64,000 nucleotides of DNA from Candidatus Hadarchaeota archaeon (GTDB taxonomy: Archaea; CAYQAE01; CAYVLA01), in assembly GCA_964621445.1 (NCBI GenBank), contig CAZUNO010000011.1:17298-81297 (forward strand), in the 5' to 3' direction. Within the stretch, counting starts at the first letter, position 1. Every line of letters begins with the position of its first letter. Below, one piece after another: positions 7,788 through 50,456 of the stretch. The position numbers were made by a program, and so were the translations under genes. The notes below the pieces were generated by a model. That model ran no database searches and had not been told where the DNA came from. It worked only from the letters and a program-made list of their open reading frames with translations.

Positions 7788-8261
7788 TTGGTTTCAGAAG
7801 AAGTCATAGCCGCGCTTGCCATTGGTCTCGCGGTGACCATTCCCGGCATAATGTCAGCTATCAGCGTTTCAACGGTGGGTGTGGCCGCAGCGGGCCTGGT
7901 CTCCGAGGAACCAAAGAAGTTTTCCAAGGCCTTTATCCTGGAGATCCTGCCCGGAACCCAGGGTTTCTATGGTTTCATAGGCGGTATGCTGGTCATGATA
8001 GCTCTCGACTGGTTGGGTGGTAGTCCACCCCCCCTGGCAGAAGGCATGGGGCTGACGGTCCTGGTGGCTGCGGTGCCCGCGATTCTACAGGGCTTCACGT
8101 CCTACTACCAGGGACTGGTGGCCACTGCCGGTGTTTCCTCGATCGCCAAGAAGGAGGAGACATTTGGAAGCTGTGTGCTGATGTCGGTAATGGTGGAGAC
8201 CTACGCCATTCTCGGTTTCCTCAGCACTTTTCTCCTGTTGATAGGCCTTCAAATATGGTAA
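7788..8261 (+). CDS. atpK: A/V-type ATP synthase subunit K (c), two-hairpin form
   Basis: LPGTQGFYGF and VMVETYAILGF motifs, four TM helices, NtpK-like. Confidence 0.92.
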   Translation: MVSEEVIAALAIGLAVTIPGIMSAISVSTVGVAAAGLVSEEPKKFSKAFILEILPGTQGFYGFIGGMLVMIALDWLGGSPPPLAEGMGLTVLVAAVPAILQGFTSYYQGLVATAGVSSIAKKEETFGSCVLMSVMVETYAILGFLSTFLLLIGLQIW

Positions 8262-8279
8262 GGCCGGGTCCCCAGGAGC

Positions 8280-8612
8280 ATGCCGGAGAGTGACCACTTG
8301 GAAGACGAACTTGAGCTAGTTTTCGAGGCCGAGAAAAAGGTCGAGAATATCGTTTCGGAGGCCGAAGGTAAGGCCAGAAGACTGAAGTCCGAGGCTGAGT
8401 CGGAGGCCGAGGAGATCGTTTCCCGGTTCCGGGAGGAGGCTGAGTCGGAGGCCGAGGAGATGATCTCGGAGAAGGTCTCCCAGGCCCAGGAGAAGGGCCA
8501 GGAGCTCCGCCGAAAGCACGAGTACAGGATATCAAAGATGGAAATGGCCGCGAAGTCCAACATGGAGGAGGCGGTCGACATCATAATCAATTCCGTTATA
8601 GAGGAGAGCTAG
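8280..8612 (+). CDS. atpH: A-type ATP synthase subunit H/G (peripheral stalk)
   Basis: 110-aa E/A/K-rich coiled coil in operon position, C-terminal EEAVDIII. Confidence 0.8.
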   Translation: MPESDHLEDELELVFEAEKKVENIVSEAEGKARRLKSEAESEAEEIVSRFREEAESEAEEMISEKVSQAQEKGQELRRKHEYRISKMEMAAKSNMEEAVDIIINSVIEES

Positions 8613-16904: not shown

Positions 16905-17320
16905 CCACTGCTTACGACTTGGCGACGGCCTACGATATCAGCCGAAAGGAATTGGTGTTCTGCAATGCAAACGACCCGGTCCGAAAGGTGGCCAGGGACT
17001 TTTACGAAAAGAAGATCGGGTCCATGATAGTGGTCAGGGACGATGAGTATATCGGTTTCGTGACCGACGAGAACATATTCCAGGCCATCGCCGAGGATGT
17101 GGACCTGCTCACCTCCAAGGTGGGTGACCTCAAGCTTGACGAGCTTCACAAGATCGACAGGGACGCAACCCTTTCCGAGGTCTCCGACAAGTTTGCCCAG
17201 ACCCAGGCCACCCGGCTGGCCGTGGTTGACGAGCACGGAAAGGTGGTGGCGGTGGTAAAGAAGAAGAACCTGGAGCTACTGGACCGGTTCAGTTTCGTGG
17301 ACCGACTAATGAAGGGCTAG
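16901..17320 (+). CDS. CBS-domain protein
   Basis: Tandem CBS pattern (KKIGSMIVVRDDEYIGFVT; TRLAVVDEHGKVVAVV). Confidence 0.85.
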   Translation: MTTAYDLATAYDISRKELVFCNANDPVRKVARDFYEKKIGSMIVVRDDEYIGFVTDENIFQAIAEDVDLLTSKVGDLKLDELHKIDRDATLSEVSDKFAQTQATRLAVVDEHGKVVAVVKKKNLELLDRFSFVDRLMKG

Positions 17321-22609: not shown

Positions 22610-24280
22610 TTGTCCTCAGAACTGGAACTCGACTTCTACACCACCATGCGTGATATTGAGTCCCGGGAAGAAGACCTACGGGAGGCCGGTGAGAGGAATG
22701 AAGAGAGTCAGTCGTTTCTAGGTAGGAAATCCGGTCTTAGGACTCTTTTGGTGGCGATTTTAGCCATTCTGGTAATTGCCCTGGTTGTATACCTCCTGCA
22801 TCTGGCTGGGTTTTTCGCGGCTCCCCGGGGCCAGCTTCTTTGGCGCGGTGCTTACCGCTCGCTGTCCGACGATTACCAGGAGCTGGAATCGCTTCACGGC
22901 AATCAGTCCCGATCGCTGAGCCAGGCTCGTGAGGAAAAGGAGAAATGGGAGAATGAGGCGGAATGGTTGCGGTCGGCCCTGGAGGCCAGGGAATCAAGGC
23001 TGGATGAAATCCAGGCGGAGATCGAGATCTGCAGGGAGGAGCTGGGCCGGACCAGGGGTGAGCTGGAAAAGGCCCGGTGCGAATACCTTCGGGCAGCCGA
23101 GCTGCTGAATCGGACCAGGAGGGAAAGGGACGATTACCGGTCATTATCCTCGGTCCTGAGGCATGAACTCTGTGTAACCCGATCAAACCTAACTGCAGCC
23201 AGGCGGGAGCTTGAGATTCGCATGGCCGAGCTAGCCTCGCTCCGGGAGGAGGTGAAAGGGCTCCAAGAACAATTGGAGGCCAGCCGGGACGATAGGGACC
23301 AATGGATATCCAGACTCCACGAACTGGAACTGGAATACCAGGAGCTCATGTGCAGGCTTAAGATCTGCGAGCTCGAGGAGGCCAGGTGGAGGGACCTATA
23401 CCTCGAGGAGCTGGCCGAGCTTGAGGAGGCCCTTGAAAGATGCGGAAATCGGACCAGGTCCCTTTCCCAGGCCCTGGATGACTGCAGGTCAAGAAACCGG
23501 GAATTGAGGGCGGAAAATGAGGAGGTCCTCCTGGAGCTGGAGCGGGTAATTTCCGAGCGGGACAGGTGGAAGGAGGCCTACCGGGAGCTCAACCGGTCAT
23601 ACAGGTTGCTCCAGGAGGAGCTGGGGGCTCTCAGGGAGAGGTGTGCAAATATCAGCGCTGCCCTGGAGGAGGTCACGCGGGAGAGGGACCGGTGGGAGAA
23701 CCTGTACGGTGAATTGGAGGCGAGCTACCGGACCTGTCTCTCAAGGCTGGAATACTGGAGGAACAGGTGTGATGAGCTCATGGCTGACCTGGAGACCGTC
23801 CAGGCCGAAAACGAGGAGCTATCCGACCAGCTGGAGGAATGCAGCTCCCGGGTGAACGAGCTGGAGGCCACCTGCGACTCACTCCAGGAAGAACTTGACC
23901 AGGCCCTTTCCAGCGTCGAGTACTGGCATGGACTGTACGATGGGCTATGGAACATCACCCTCTCGCTGGAGATCGGGAACATATCGGTCCTGGACCGGGA
24001 GTGTGGAAAGCCATCAAGGATTTCGGCGGAGATAATGGCCTGCGTGAGCACCACGGAATCCCCCATGTACCTGTTTCTTGAATACTGGGCTGAACCATTG
24101 GACTGCGTCTGGGGATATGGGACCATTACCGAGGAAGTTTCCCAATGGGAATCAACGTGCAAGACCTTCAATGTCACCCTCGATTTCGGTACCGGGGTGG
24201 GACCCTACAAGGTGATATCCAAGGGCAGGCTTCAACCAATCCATGGGGCGGCGGAAGCCGAGAAGCGGGGTCCGGATTAA
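22610..24280 (+). CDS. Membrane-anchored long coiled-coil protein with C-terminal globular domain
   Basis: One N-proximal TM, roughly 370 aa of heptad repeats, many N-x-S/T sequons, beta-rich Cys-containing C-terminus. Confidence 0.8.
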   Translation: MSSELELDFYTTMRDIESREEDLREAGERNEESQSFLGRKSGLRTLLVAILAILVIALVVYLLHLAGFFAAPRGQLLWRGAYRSLSDDYQELESLHGNQSRSLSQAREEKEKWENEAEWLRSALEARESRLDEIQAEIEICREELGRTRGELEKARCEYLRAAELLNRTRRERDDYRSLSSVLRHELCVTRSNLTAARRELEIRMAELASLREEVKGLQEQLEASRDDRDQWISRLHELELEYQELMCRLKICELEEARWRDLYLEELAELEEALERCGNRTRSLSQALDDCRSRNRELRAENEEVLLELERVISERDRWKEAYRELNRSYRLLQEELGALRERCANISAALEEVTRERDRWENLYGELEASYRTCLSRLEYWRNRCDELMADLETVQAENEELSDQLEECSSRVNELEATCDSLQEELDQALSSVEYWHGLYDGLWNITLSLEIGNISVLDRECGKPSRISAEIMACVSTTESPMYLFLEYWAEPLDCVWGYGTITEEVSQWESTCKTFNVTLDFGTGVGPYKVISKGRLQPIHGAAEAEKRGPD

Positions 24281-24410
24281 CTCGGGTTCCCGGCTAGGAT
24301 GGAATTTTCATCATAAATGGCACTATTTCAACACGTTTTTGCCCCATATTCAAGTTGAATTTAGCAAATGGATACTAAATAGAGGCTAGAGCCCTTTCTT
24401 TTAGGGTTTC

Positions 24411-24430
24411 CCGATAACTTTTTAAGTTAG
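24411..24430 (+). promoter_or_regulatory. BRE/TATA promoter of the BHB-RNA precursor, overlapped by palindrome TAACTT-N3-AAGTTA
   Basis: CCGATAAC followed by TTTTTAAG (24419-26); archaeal spacing predicts a start near 24448, where the structured region begins. Confidence 0.65.
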
Positions 24431-24472
24431 AATGACATATATTCATTCCCTGTCGTGGCCGGCAGGGCAGGT

Positions 24473-24780
24473 AGGAAGCAGACAGTCACGGGAAATGGTT
24501 CGATGTCCTTTGGATGTCGAGCCGGTGACGAACGCCTCTTTCCAGGGCCTATGTCCGTGGGAAGTCGCGTTCCAAGCCACGGGATTGATCGGCTGCGATC
24601 GATTTCCCCGAAACCAGTCGAAAAAAGTGGCCTCCCGTAAAGGGTCTCGCTCCGTTGAGGTACGAGCCATCGTCGAGTATCCCTGGTACAGTGGCTTTCT
24701 CGGTGCGAGCAAAGGAGCAGGTATCCAGGTCCGAGCCTCAGAAGAGGACTGGTGACTTGCTTTACGTCGCTTCCCTGCAA
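24473..24780 (+). ncRNA. BHB-flanked structured RNA 1 (308 nt, predicted excised and circular), unknown family
   Basis: Canonical BHB: CCGGCAGG-GCAG-[GUA]-GGAAGC (24459-79) with GCUUCC-CUGC-[AAA]-CCUGCCGG (24769-89); internal G-U-containing hairpins; paralogous to RNA 2. Confidence 0.8.
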
Positions 24781-24811
24781 ACCTGCCGGTTTGACGGGCA
24801 CAGGAGCGGTA

Positions 24812-25099
24812 AGGAGACGGATGCTGCCGGGAACAAGCAACAGGTTCCGGCTTGTTGCTTGGTGGAAGTTGATGGGTGTGTGAACACGCATCGGCAATGC
24901 CGCCGGGAGCACCTTCGTACCTTCTGATGTTTCCTCAGGTGGTATGGAGAAGGCGGCAATCCGTAAAAGGATCCGCCCGTTGAGGCGGAGTCGAGCACAA
25001 ACTCCCAAGTAAGTTCGACTTCTAACGGGCGGAAGGAACGGACCTCCACGCCAAACCTCAAGAGAGGTGTGGCGGTCTGTTTTGTCCGTCTCCCCGCAA
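24812..25099 (+). ncRNA. BHB-flanked structured RNA 2 (288 nt, predicted excised and circular), unknown family
   Basis: Canonical BHB: GGA-GCGG-[UAA]-GGAGACGGAU (24803-22) with GUCCGUCUCC-CCGC-[AAU]-UCC (25084-103); 10-bp stem 24972-81/25024-33; paralogous to RNA 1. Confidence 0.8.
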
Positions 25100-25140
25100 T
25101 TCCCTATTTACACATCCCTTCTGGACTAGTTGTGGCTACA

Positions 25141-25156
25141 TTTCTTCTCATTTTTT
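25141..25156 (+). terminator. Oligo-T terminator of the ncRNA precursor
   Basis: TTTCTTCTCATTTTTT pyrimidine run, followed by a separate TATA-like TTTTTAT near 25194 for the next gene. Confidence 0.5.
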
Positions 25157-25238
25157 GATACTAATGGCGTAACACTGCGTATATTCCGGCAGGTTTTTAT
25201 CGTCCAAAAACGGTCATTATCCCTGGGTAGGTGATGAT

Positions 25239-26417
25239 TTGCCGAAATACATGTACGCGGATTCGACCGAGTTCGGTCTGCAGCGTGACTTCATAGATAT
25301 ACTCGAAAGGTTCTCGGACGCGGCGATAGAGGCCATTCCAGACCAGCGGGAAATCCTGGAGTTGAAAGAAAAGATAGCCAACAAGGAGTCGGAGAAGGAG
25401 TCCACCCTTACCAGGATAGACAAGTATGGCCAGGAGATAGATTCCTCGATAGAGGACGTGACCAGGCGTTTCGGGGCGGAGGAGTTTGGCCCGGTCCTAG
25501 AGAGGATGAAGGCAGCGGCCTCGGAATACGTCAATGACTTTCGGCAGGCCAGGCTTGAGGCCTTTGAGAAGGAGATGAGCTCCCTGAAGGACAGCCTATC
25601 CAAGAAACAGGCCAGCCTGCTCCAGGTCCTGCAGGACTTCCTGTACCATGACCCCCTGAAGATGGAGCGTCTGGTGGTCGAGGCCTCTCTGGATGGTGAA
25701 AGGTACGATTCCAGGGCCGAGACCTCCTGCCAGAACGGCGTGTTCTACGTATTCAAGCTGGACTTCTTCGACAGAAAAATGGAAGTTAAGGATCTGATAG
25801 AGAAGAAGGTGGAGATACCGGCAGCCATGAAGAAGACCATCATGGGGAAGGAAAAGAAGCCCCGGTTTATCTCCCTAGATGACTGGTGTATAGAGGACCT
25901 GAGGTACGAATCGAATGGGGAGACGGTTCTCAGAGCCACCCTGACCGGCGAGCCGGGCAAGGAGGACTCCCCTAAACTGCAGCTAACCCTGACCCCGGGG
26001 GAGGAAAGGGTTGAGTCGGTTGTGTACACGGACGAGGATGGGGATAGCCTGGACATACTGAAGGACCCCGAGCTCAGGAAGCACGTGGACGAGAACCTGG
26101 AGGAGTATGCCAAGTTCCTCCTGGGCCACTGCTTCACCCTTACCAATAGGAAGAAGGACATGGTCGATGTCCAGATGGACGACCAGGGTCTGGTGGAGAA
26201 CGACCTGGCCGAGAAGTTCATGGTAAGATGCGCAAAGGAATACGCCCCCACCGTGGCCAAGATAAGGGAGAAGGGCCTGGTGGACAAGGAGCTCAACCTG
26301 AAGGTAGAGGACGTCGAGGGCAGGAGAACTGAGCTTTATATGGATATAGAGGAATACAGGTCCAAGATGAAGGCCATCCCTCGCGGGTCAGAGATGTGTT
26401 CCATCATGGGTCTGTAG
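25239..26417 (+). CDS. Hypothetical protein (N-terminal coiled coil, acidic alpha/beta C-terminus)
   Basis: 392-aa ORF, GGTGA before TTG, host-like codon usage; no motif recognised. Confidence 0.8.
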   Translation: MPKYMYADSTEFGLQRDFIDILERFSDAAIEAIPDQREILELKEKIANKESEKESTLTRIDKYGQEIDSSIEDVTRRFGAEEFGPVLERMKAAASEYVNDFRQARLEAFEKEMSSLKDSLSKKQASLLQVLQDFLYHDPLKMERLVVEASLDGERYDSRAETSCQNGVFYVFKLDFFDRKMEVKDLIEKKVEIPAAMKKTIMGKEKKPRFISLDDWCIEDLRYESNGETVLRATLTGEPGKEDSPKLQLTLTPGEERVESVVYTDEDGDSLDILKDPELRKHVDENLEEYAKFLLGHCFTLTNRKKDMVDVQMDDQGLVENDLAEKFMVRCAKEYAPTVAKIREKGLVDKELNLKVEDVEGRRTELYMDIEEYRSKMKAIPRGSEMCSIMGL

Positions 26418-44834: not shown

Positions 44835-46280
44835 TCAGCCCTTGGTTACGGCCAGAGGCCTCAGCTTGGCGACTTTTCTGCTTATTCCCACCTTGTGGCA
44901 GACATCTACAACGTTATTAATGTCCTTGTAAGCGCCGGGGGCTTCCTCCGCGATCACCGGCATACTTGCAGCTTTAACTATGATTCCCTCCTTTTCCAGA
45001 TCGCTCTGCACGGTCTCTCCCCAGAAGTTCTTCTTGGCCTTGGTGCGGCTGAGTATTCTGCCGGCGCCGTGACAGGTGGAGCCGAATGTCTCGTTCATGG
45101 CGGTCTCCGTTCCCACCAGCAGGTAGGAGGCGGTGCCCATGTCTCCGGGTATGATCACCGGCTGTCCTATCTCCGAATAGTCGTCGGGTATGGAGTCGCT
45201 TCCCGGGCCGAAGCTACGGGTTGCTCCCTTACGGTGTACGCATAGTTCCATATCCTCTCCATCTACGGTGTGATACTCCATCTTCCCGATGTTGTGGGCC
45301 ACGTCGTAGACCATGCTCATGTCCAGGCTCTCCGGGCTCTCGCCAAGCACGTCCTGGAAGGTCTCCCTCACCCAGTGCATTATCATCTGCCTGTTGCCCC
45401 ATGCGTAGTTGGCCCCTGCTGACATGGCCGCCATGTAGGAGTCGGCCTCCGGGGTGCCAAGGGGTGCACAGGCCAGCTCGCGGTCCGGGATGTCTATGTC
45501 GTACTTCTTTACCGCTTTCTCCATAACCTTGAGGTAGTCGGAGCATATCTGGTGCCCGCAACCCCTGGAACCGGTATGTATCATGGTTGTTACCTGGTTC
45601 TCGTGATCTATCCCCATCACTTCGGCGGCTTTCTGGTCGAAGATCTTGTCCACGTACTGGATTTCCAGGAAATGGTTTCCGCTACCCAGACTTCCCAGCT
45701 GGGGGATCCCCCTTTTCTTGGCCCTGTCGCTGATAACCGAGGAGTCGGCCCTTTCCAGAGACCCGTTTTCCTCCATATGCTCCAGGTCCTCGTCCCAGCC
45801 GTAGCCGTTCTCCACGGCCCAGGCGGCACCTCTCTCCAACACCTGTTCTATCTCCCTGCTGTCCAGCTTCACCCTGCCCTTACTGCCCAGTCCGGAGGGG
45901 ACATTCTTGAAAGCTGTGTTTATTAGGGATTTCAGGTTGGACTTTATGTCCTCCTTGTCCAGGTTGGTGCGGAGCAGCCTGACTCCGCAGTTGATGTCAT
46001 AACCTATTCCACCGGGGCTTATTACCCCGTCCTCTGAGTCGAAGGCTGCCACCCCTCCGATGGGAAAGCCGTATCCAAGGTGGACATCCGGCATGGCCAT
46101 GGAGTAATTGACGATGCCCGGGAGGCATGCGATATTGACCACCTGGCCTATGGTCCGATTGTCGATTTCCTTCAATAATTTCGAGTCAGCGATTACCCTC
46201 CCCGGCACCCTCATACAGTCCTTGTAGCTGGCGGGGATCTCGTGAACGAGTTCGGATATCTTCTTCATTTGGTTGCTCAT
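44835..46280 (-). CDS. rtcB: tRNA-splicing ligase RtcB
   Basis: [47 protein letters not shown]; no intein. Confidence 0.97.
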
Positions 46281-50343: not shown

Positions 50344-50456
50344 GGGCCCGTAGCTTAGTCTGGTAGATCCCATCGGGAGTCAACAGCGATGGGCTCTTAA
50401 CCCATTGAAGAATTTTCTTCGGGGAAAGGTCTGGGGTTCAAGTCCCCACGGGCCCG
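50344..50456 (+). tRNA. tRNA-Lys(CUU) with two non-canonical introns (50367-50384 at 22/23; 50406-50426 at 43/44); CCA not encoded
   Basis: Removing the two inserts gives GGGCCCG-TA-GCTT-AGTCTGGTA-GAGC-G-ATGGG-CTCTTAA-CCCAT-AGGTC-TGGGG-TTCAAGT-CCCCA-CGGGCCC-G, a complete cloverleaf. Confidence 0.92.

Follow-up and report, generated by a model that had tools for sequence, protein, structure and literature searches.

A tandem pair of paralogous, BHB-flanked structured RNAs in Hadarchaeota: a candidate source of circular non-coding RNAs

Introduction

To our knowledge, very few large structured RNAs are known from archaea beyond rRNA, SRP RNA and RNase P RNA, and, apart from a few special cases, the bulge-helix-bulge (BHB) pathway has essentially only tRNA introns and rRNA precursors as known natural substrates. 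An intergenic region of a Candidatus Hadarchaeota archaeon (assembly GCA_964621445.1) carries two adjacent stretches, designated A and B, each of which is flanked by a BHB motif, and the question that this locus raises is what kind of gene it represents. The initial annotation had described the two as diverged paralogs with compensatory base changes, and had taken them for a functional RNA family as opposed to a recent duplication or a chance fold. All coordinates given below refer to the stretch of 64,000 nt that was analysed (positions 17,298 to 81,297 of the forward strand of contig CAZUNO010000011.1), hereafter called the window.

Results

Organization of the A-B unit

The RNAs are located in an intergenic gap (24283-25238) between two plus-strand ORFs of 556 aa (22610-24280) and 392 aa (25239-26417). 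The gap starts with an AT-rich part containing TTTTTAAG, continues as a G+C-rich block of approximately 650 nt and ends in T-runs, and the RNA unit within it (24419-25160, +) consists of a TATA-like box, RNA A, a spacer, RNA B and the T-runs, its strand being fixed by the many G-U pairs of the RNAs. The TATA-like box TTTTTAAG (24419-24426, +) presumably acts as the archaeal promoter of the unit, and either this sequence or TTTTATA was found 50-55 nt before the 5′ cut of A at all six loci for which upstream sequence was present. The 5′ leader (24448-24472, +), delimited by the BHB finder and the fold, supplies the 5′ strand of the A processing stem (outer helix strand 24457-24466, central BHB helix strand 24467-24470) together with the first two bulge bases, and is followed by RNA A (24473-24780, +), a predicted excised and circularised product of 308 nt that is based on a constrained fold and on the consensus fold of six A units. 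A spacer of 31 nt (24781-24811, +), comprising the 3′ strand of the A processing stem and the 5′ strand of the B BHB, separates it from RNA B (24812-25099, +), the corresponding predicted product of 288 nt, which is based on its consensus fold and on pair counts. The 3′ trailer (25100-25160, +) contains T-runs at 25107-09, 25141-43 and 25151-56 and is presumed to be the termination region; T-rich tracts were observed downstream of B at the other loci as well. The TATA-like box at a fixed distance and the T-runs after B are thus consistent with an independent transcription unit.

BHB motifs and the processing machinery

BHB motifs were identified with a script that looks for a helix, a 3-nt bulge, a 4-bp helix, a 3-nt bulge on the opposite strand and a further helix. 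The motif of A (24467-24781, +) has a central helix of GCAG (24467-70) and CTGC (24775-78) with bulges at 24471-73 and 24779-81, an outer helix of 10 bp and an inner helix of 6 bp that runs on into helix P1, while that of B (24806-25100, +) has a central helix of GCGG (24806-09) and CCGC (25094-97), bulges at 24810-12 and 25098-100, an outer helix of only 3 bp and an inner helix of 11 bp (P1). Both RNAs are therefore of the hBHBh′ form, that is, a canonical 3-4-3 BHB with outer and inner helices. The archaeal endonuclease cuts after the second bulge base of a BHB, from which the 308-nt and 288-nt products delimited above would follow.

The five remaining full A units carry the BHB at the equivalent position, where it was recovered by the strict finder at loci L004 and L008 and by a motif scan at L006, L003 and L026, with one mismatch each at L006 and L003. 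For B, the strict finder recovered the motif in five of the seven units, and in the other two (G001 and a metagenome copy) the outer helix was seen by eye to be interrupted. The geometry is equal in all other units, apart from a single A-C mismatch that affects the central helix of A in genome G002, and the inner helices covary, as exemplified by GGAGACGG/CCGTCTCC versus GGAGGCGG/CCGCCTCC, with the BHB being kept at seven loci. Seven BHB-like arrangements of comparable strength, A and B included, were present on the two strands of the whole window; the strongest of these, at 8221-8447 (+; 8221/8440) with a 12-bp outer and a 10-bp inner helix, is located in coding sequence with GAG/GCC-rich repeats and was dismissed as a chance occurrence. 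As comparable arrangements arise by chance, the case for A and B is built on the conservation of the motif and not just on its presence.

EndA-family genes (PF01974 matches) were found on contigs C2 (82920-83723) and C9 (29229-29699) of this genome, and a gene for the RNA ligase RtcB (PF01139, 609 bits) is located within the window at 44838-46145 (-), approximately 20 kb downstream of the RNA locus. Two EndA-like genes are present in each of the four genomes that carry the RNAs, one specifying a two-repeat form and the other a longer protein (a 507-aa ORF with a C-terminal endonuclease domain in this genome), and a single EndA of 190 aa is encoded by the sister-family genome that does not carry them, a pattern which is confounded by phylogeny and comprises five genomes only. 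Elsewhere in the window, a 113-nt Rfam tRNA match at 50344-50456 (+; 46.5 bits), which was not called by ARAGORN, is probably an intron-containing tRNA gene, and the strict finder detected no clean canonical BHB in it.

A common fold with two pseudoknots

The segment 24440-25110 (671 nt) folds at -322 kcal/mol (z = -7.3), and none of 20 dinucleotide shuffles folded as low, in agreement with the initial annotation, which had excluded chance folding. A and B share an architecture in which P1, a continuation of the BHB inner helix, shuts a multi-helix junction and is followed by P2, the hairpins P3 and P4, and P5 with its hairpin P5a, while the 3′ part contains a small P6, capped by GAAA, GCAA, GAGA or GUAAA, and the P7/P7a and P8/P8a/P8b sets; loops of the GNRA type are present on P6 and P4. 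For RNA A (+) the helices are P1 (24474-83/24766-74), P2 (24485-89/24525-29), P3 (24497-508/24512-23), P4 (24530-48/24553-72), P5 (24576-80/24627-31), P5a (24589-601/24609-21), P6 (24634-36/24642-44), P7 (24646-53/24702-09), P7a (24664-76/24684-97), P8 (24714-22/24755-63), P8a (24725-28/24749-52) and P8b (24736-39/24744-47). Those of RNA B (+) are P1 (24813-22/25084-93), P2 (24824-28/24861-65), P3 (24836-45/24850-59), P4 (24868-79/24884-95), P5 (24899-904/24952-57), P5a (24913-27/24935-49), P6 (24960-62/24969-71), P7 (24973-79/25026-32), P7a (24987-96/25013-22), P8 (25035-44/25074-83), P8a (25046-49/25069-72) and P8b (25056-59/25064-67). For window B the MFE structure of the single sequence favours a different P2/P5 topology; the comparative topology was adopted as it is supported by the A units and by three B units.

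The first pseudoknot, PK1, joins J2/3, the strand just after P2, to the P5a loop (24490-96 with 24602-08 in A; 24829-35 with 24928-34 in B), and the second, PK2, joins J5/5a, the strand after P5, to the P7a loop (24581-85 with 24679-83 in A; 24905-09 with 25002-06 in B). The pairing partners differ between units, PK1 being GGGAAAU/AUUUCCC in window A, GGGAACA/UGUUUCC in window B and CGCGAGG/CCUCGCG in B of G002, and PK2 being GGGAU/AUCCC in A, GGGAG/CUCCC in B and GGAAGA/UCUUCC in the copy of B on contig C29 of this genome. When partners were permuted among 13 units, the 82 pairs formed by the PK1 segments with their own partners dropped to 61.9 +/- 3.4 (0 of 2000 permutations as high), and the 79 pairs of PK2 to 69.7 +/- 2.6 (1 of 2000), the segments having been picked by eye with pair counting afterwards. 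The full fold thereby amounts to approximately 14 helices (P1-P8 and their sub-helices) and two pseudoknots, with support from covariation.

Covariation and conservation

All sequences and coordinates quoted in the initial annotation for the 3′ domains (24712-24763 and 25033-25083) were located in the window, and the stems that it had named do pair, namely GAGCAGGU/ACUUGCUU versus GAACGGAC/GUCUGUUU and CCAG/CUGG versus CCAC/GUGG. The identical CCGTTGAGG is present at 24652-60 and 24977-85, where CCGTAAA begins 17 nt (24635) and 16 nt (24961) earlier, respectively, and CCTC-N4-GAGG is present at 24736-47 and 25056-67, ending 33 and 32 nt short of the final base of the excised products (24780 and 25099), these distances depending on a cut after the second bulge base as the annotation had also assumed. 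In the consensus of 14 homologous units the 3′ domain has 27 pairs, for which 94.4% of the cells are paired and 12 of which are changed on both sides (30 cells), so that the reported compensatory changes are borne out. Covariation was looked for in this alignment of homologs and is present: none of 500 shuffles reached any of five measures, although such controls overstate the significance since the 14 units derive from five organisms and are related. Sliding the partners by 1-3 columns reduced the pairing of the 3′ domain to 38-56%.

Of the 13 pairs of P8, 8 covary, and most units carry CCAG/CUGG at P8a, with CCAC/GUGG in the two B units of this genome, while the CCUC/GAGG hairpin is invariant and hence offers covariation neither for nor against it. 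The 3′-domain alignment of the 14 units contains 32 invariant columns, and the near-invariant bases cluster in this domain, at the UGAGG bulge of P7, the AAGG linker, the P8 internal loop and the CCUC/GAGG hairpin. Over their full length, the six A units share 91 pairs (88.6% paired, 30 with both sides changed) and the seven B units 76 pairs (89.9% paired, 32 with both sides changed); for both, four or five of the five measures were not matched by any of 500 shuffles. Among strain variants found on low-depth DNA contigs of two other samples, pairing is kept in 9 of 11 helix substitutions when judged against the helices of the constrained fold. Taken as a comparative result, the predicted fold of A and B, pseudoknots included, is shown to be conserved.

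Paralogy of A and B

The 3′ domains of A and B in the window are 57% identical, and the order of A followed by B is kept at all seven loci, which represent three genera and one metagenome contig, the 5′ domain and the BHB/P1 sequences being what marks a unit as A or B. By sequence comparison A and B are therefore old paralogs, which upholds the earlier view that they did not arise by recent duplication. A and B do not form cleanly separate groups in a tree built from the 3′ domains, and A and B of the G003:C24 locus group together; at that locus (L008 1530-1560 and 1840-1870) the P8 regions of A and B are almost identical over approximately 45 nt, which is not the case elsewhere. Such near-identity suggests that the paralogs have occasionally undergone gene conversion at G003:C24, in which case A and B would not be fully independent. 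As regards the proposal of a functional RNA family, its core stands in that structure is conserved by way of compensatory changes, but it needs to be qualified by the small number of related sequences and by the possible gene conversion.

Distribution and gene context

The RNA family is present in four of the five genomes examined for the phylum. A DNA search of 41 genomes gave matches in four, i.e. this genome and all three genomes of the same family (G001, G002 and G003), and in none of the remaining 37. In this genome a second RNA locus is present on contig C29, neither site being related to rRNA genes, and in total seven loci with 14 units were recovered, one unit being cut by a contig end. 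When 185,579 species genomes were scanned with a strict DNA pattern, the only matches were the three known relatives and one chance match, the latter in an Acidobacteriota MAG with a score of 13.9 bits. From metagenome contigs, three of six pattern stretches were real: two of these, on different contigs, belong to one new locus with 90% identity to G001, and the third is identical to G001; the other three were attributed to chance, as was the single stretch obtained from viral contigs (10.5 bits).

A covariance model of the 140-position 3′ domain only, as distinct from the full-length units, scored 94-144 bits on 12 copies (four in this genome, G000, four in G003, two in G001 and two in G002), and in 151 archaeal genomes it detected nothing above 22.5 bits outside the family. 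Matches at E values up to 0.1 were obtained in 14 genomes outside the family, all at 22.5 bits or less, and the best of these (G077) was rejected since it is devoid of the P8 domain and reads by eye as part of an ORF. The sister-family genome G004, the fifth of the phylum, gave no match to the model, and does not have intergenic room upstream of its fumarase gene.

The loci are of two types, both of which are syntenic and not mobile. Type 1, represented by the present window and G003:C24, is positioned with the 556-aa coiled-coil gene on one side and the 392-aa gene on the other, and the orientation of the RNA unit with respect to these neighbours is reversed from one genome to the other. Type 2, represented by contig C29 of this genome, G001, G002 and G003:C191, is found immediately upstream of fumarase genes that share its strand; a tie to the downstream fumarase and glycerate-kinase-like genes was considered and rejected, as T-runs in between cause them to be read as separate units. 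The 556-aa gene is present in all four genomes of the family, with no RNA beside it in G001 and G002. The 556-aa protein (22610-24280, +), whose gene flanks the RNA both here and in G003:C24, has weak coiled-coil Pfam matches only. The 392-aa protein (25239-26417, +), whose gene adjoins the RNA, has no Pfam or Atlas match; this gene was found only in the two genomes with a type 1 locus and not in G001, G002 or G004, which, with four genomes of the family, is a hint at most.

Comparison with known RNA families and assessment of coding potential

No Rfam 15 family matched the RNA region at the gathering score. When matches up to an E value of 10 were admitted for 23800-25700 (1.9 kb) only noise was obtained, i.e. 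RRE at E values of 0.47 and 4.2, and sR38 at an E value of 9.7, the latter falling outside the A and B units; the five homologous loci (13.6 kb) gave no Rfam match. Neither archaeal SRP RNA (RF01857) nor archaeal RNase P RNA (RF00373) matched the region, and the copies of this genome were located on contigs C16 (196.5 bits) and C17 (203.2 bits), respectively. A tRNA intron or split tRNA was likewise rejected, given that ARAGORN called no tRNA in the window and that the sole Rfam tRNA match is the one at 50344-50456. ORFs of 90-193 aa overlap the RNA region on both strands, and none of the four overlapping ORFs had a Pfam match. A 3-base periodicity was absent, variable columns being distributed over the three positions as 67/60/69 in A and 69/70/71 in B, and gap runs in the unit alignments are mostly 1-2 nt long. 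K-turns, C/D boxes, a sarcin-ricin-like loop, SD/anti-SD mimicry and peptide coding by the circle were also considered, and were found to be not conserved or indistinguishable on the invariant bases.

Discussion

Judged from comparative sequence evidence, A and B constitute a new RNA family in which a known processing route appears in a new setting. We consider it likely that 24419-25160 (+) is an independent non-coding gene from which A and B are excised and circularised as stable, structured, trans-acting RNAs. A single primary transcript would carry both paralogs, EndA would cut at the four bulges of the processing stems, and RtcB would join the resulting ends to generate covalently closed circles of 308 and 288 nt, while also yielding a joined leader-spacer-trailer hairpin. 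Each circle would then take a compact shape in which the P1-closed junction is tied by the two long-range pseudoknots. The final and weakest step is that A and B would persist as stable, abundant RNAs that act in trans, the invariant 3′ core serving as a binding platform, most likely for protein partners, or possibly as a catalytic centre. This trans-acting role is put forward tentatively; as to its nature, an RNP scaffold is possible though rather doubtful, and catalysis is quite unlikely. Since A and B would always be co-transcribed at 1:1, they probably act as non-redundant partners.

Several other explanations of the locus were weighed against this one. BHB excision normally removes introns, and the flanks left after excision of A and B would make a long hairpin with a 7-nt loop, such that the product could be the ligated leader-spacer-trailer RNA with A and B as mere introns, or else the locus could be a decayed processing cassette. 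Both conservation and covariation are nonetheless located inside A and B, with 32 invariant columns in the 3′ domain, approximately 14 helices and two pseudoknots, while in the flanks only the positions required for the BHB stems are conserved and no tRNA or other family was detected, which makes this explanation very improbable. That the region is protein-coding or a chance fold, as the overlapping ORFs of 90-193 aa on both strands might indicate, is refuted by the lack of Pfam matches and of periodicity, by the gaps of 1-2 nt and by the compensatory changes, and the 57% identity of A and B together with an order maintained across three genera argues against a recent duplication; we regard the chance of any of these as negligible.

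A diverged or circularly permuted version of a known RNA, be it SRP RNA, RNase P RNA, an rRNA fragment or a group I intron, would fit the size of approximately 300 nt, the pseudoknots, the GNRA loops and the rRNA-like processing, and a BHB-processed permuted SRP RNA does exist in Thermoproteus according to the available text of PMC4731332. Such an identity is nevertheless highly unlikely, as the best local Rfam match reached an E value of only 0.47 over 1.9 kb with none over the 13.6 kb of homologous loci, and canonical SRP and RNase P RNAs are encoded elsewhere in the genome. More room is left for the alternative that A and B are cut at the BHB but work as linear RNAs, or are re-opened after circularisation in the manner of pre-rRNAs: P1 pairs both ends of each unit, and the fold consequently needs no ligation, while re-linearisation of archaeal 16S rRNA circles is described in the accessible part of PMC12918454. 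The presence of RtcB in the genome, the generally circular state of excised BHB products in archaea, as stated in the portion of PMC12558985 that was available, and the absence of an evident conserved secondary processing site in A and B all speak against linear RNAs, which we hold to be unlikely. Excision followed by circularisation is thus retained as our preferred explanation.

Among large structured bacterial non-coding RNAs, OLE, GOLLD, ROOL and raiA are examples for which the function is unknown. A and B resemble these in being several hundred nucleotides long, in their covarying helices, pseudoknots and GNRA loops, and in a narrow phylogenetic range with no known function, but differ in being archaeal, BHB-flanked (and probably circular) and organized as a heterologous pair, with no relation to them by sequence or Rfam. 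A parallel in terms of processing is provided by archaeal 16S and 23S rRNA, which undergo BHB excision by EndA and circularisation by RtcB, as described in the available parts of PMC12918454 and PMC12558985. Like a pre-rRNA, the A-B unit would have one promoter and two tandem structured RNAs, each enclosed in a long stem with a 3-4-3 BHB and each with product ends that pair with one another, the pathway being predicted in the present case; unlike rRNAs, A and B are of approximately 300 nt and are paralogs of each other, and no Rfam rRNA was found in the region. In Thermoproteus, the SRP RNA is circularly permuted and matures by BHB cleavage and circularisation (PMC4731332, as far as its accessible text describes). 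A and B are similar to it in being structured RNA genes other than tRNA or rRNA that possess BHB motifs, with processing being predicted here, yet circularisation in Thermoproteus restores a known RNA from permuted halves, whereas A and B are unpermuted, with P1 joining their ends, and match no family. The C/D box sRNA of the tRNA-Trp intron represents a functional RNA within a circular tRNA intron (PMC12558985, available text). A and B are similarly framed for what is predicted to be release of a circle by BHB excision, albeit without tRNA exons and at four to five times the size; conserved C/D box motifs were not seen in A and B. Full-text searches of the literature gave no description of such RNAs, the nearest reports being those on rRNA circularisation, tRNA introns, the permuted Thermoproteus SRP RNA and BHB-independent circular omega RNAs.

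A bolder interpretation is that A and B together represent the two RNA subunits of a new RNP or ribozyme, composed of circular pseudoknotted RNAs that would be produced from a dedicated rRNA-like operon restricted to one rarely sampled archaeal phylum. We regard this interpretation as somewhat doubtful; if correct, it would provide the first large structured non-rRNA class that normally exists as a BHB-generated circle. Two pseudoknots and an invariant core are the type of architecture found in ribozymes and RNP scaffolds. The A-B locus would also be a natural example of the BHB-based production of circular RNA that is now copied by engineers, and circRNA-seq, structure probing and cryo-EM would have a well-delimited target in A and B. 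If the predicted excision and circularisation are true, a conserved, stand-alone BHB operon for two paralogous RNAs of 300 nt would represent a new RNA class, and with it a new use of RNA circularisation by archaea.
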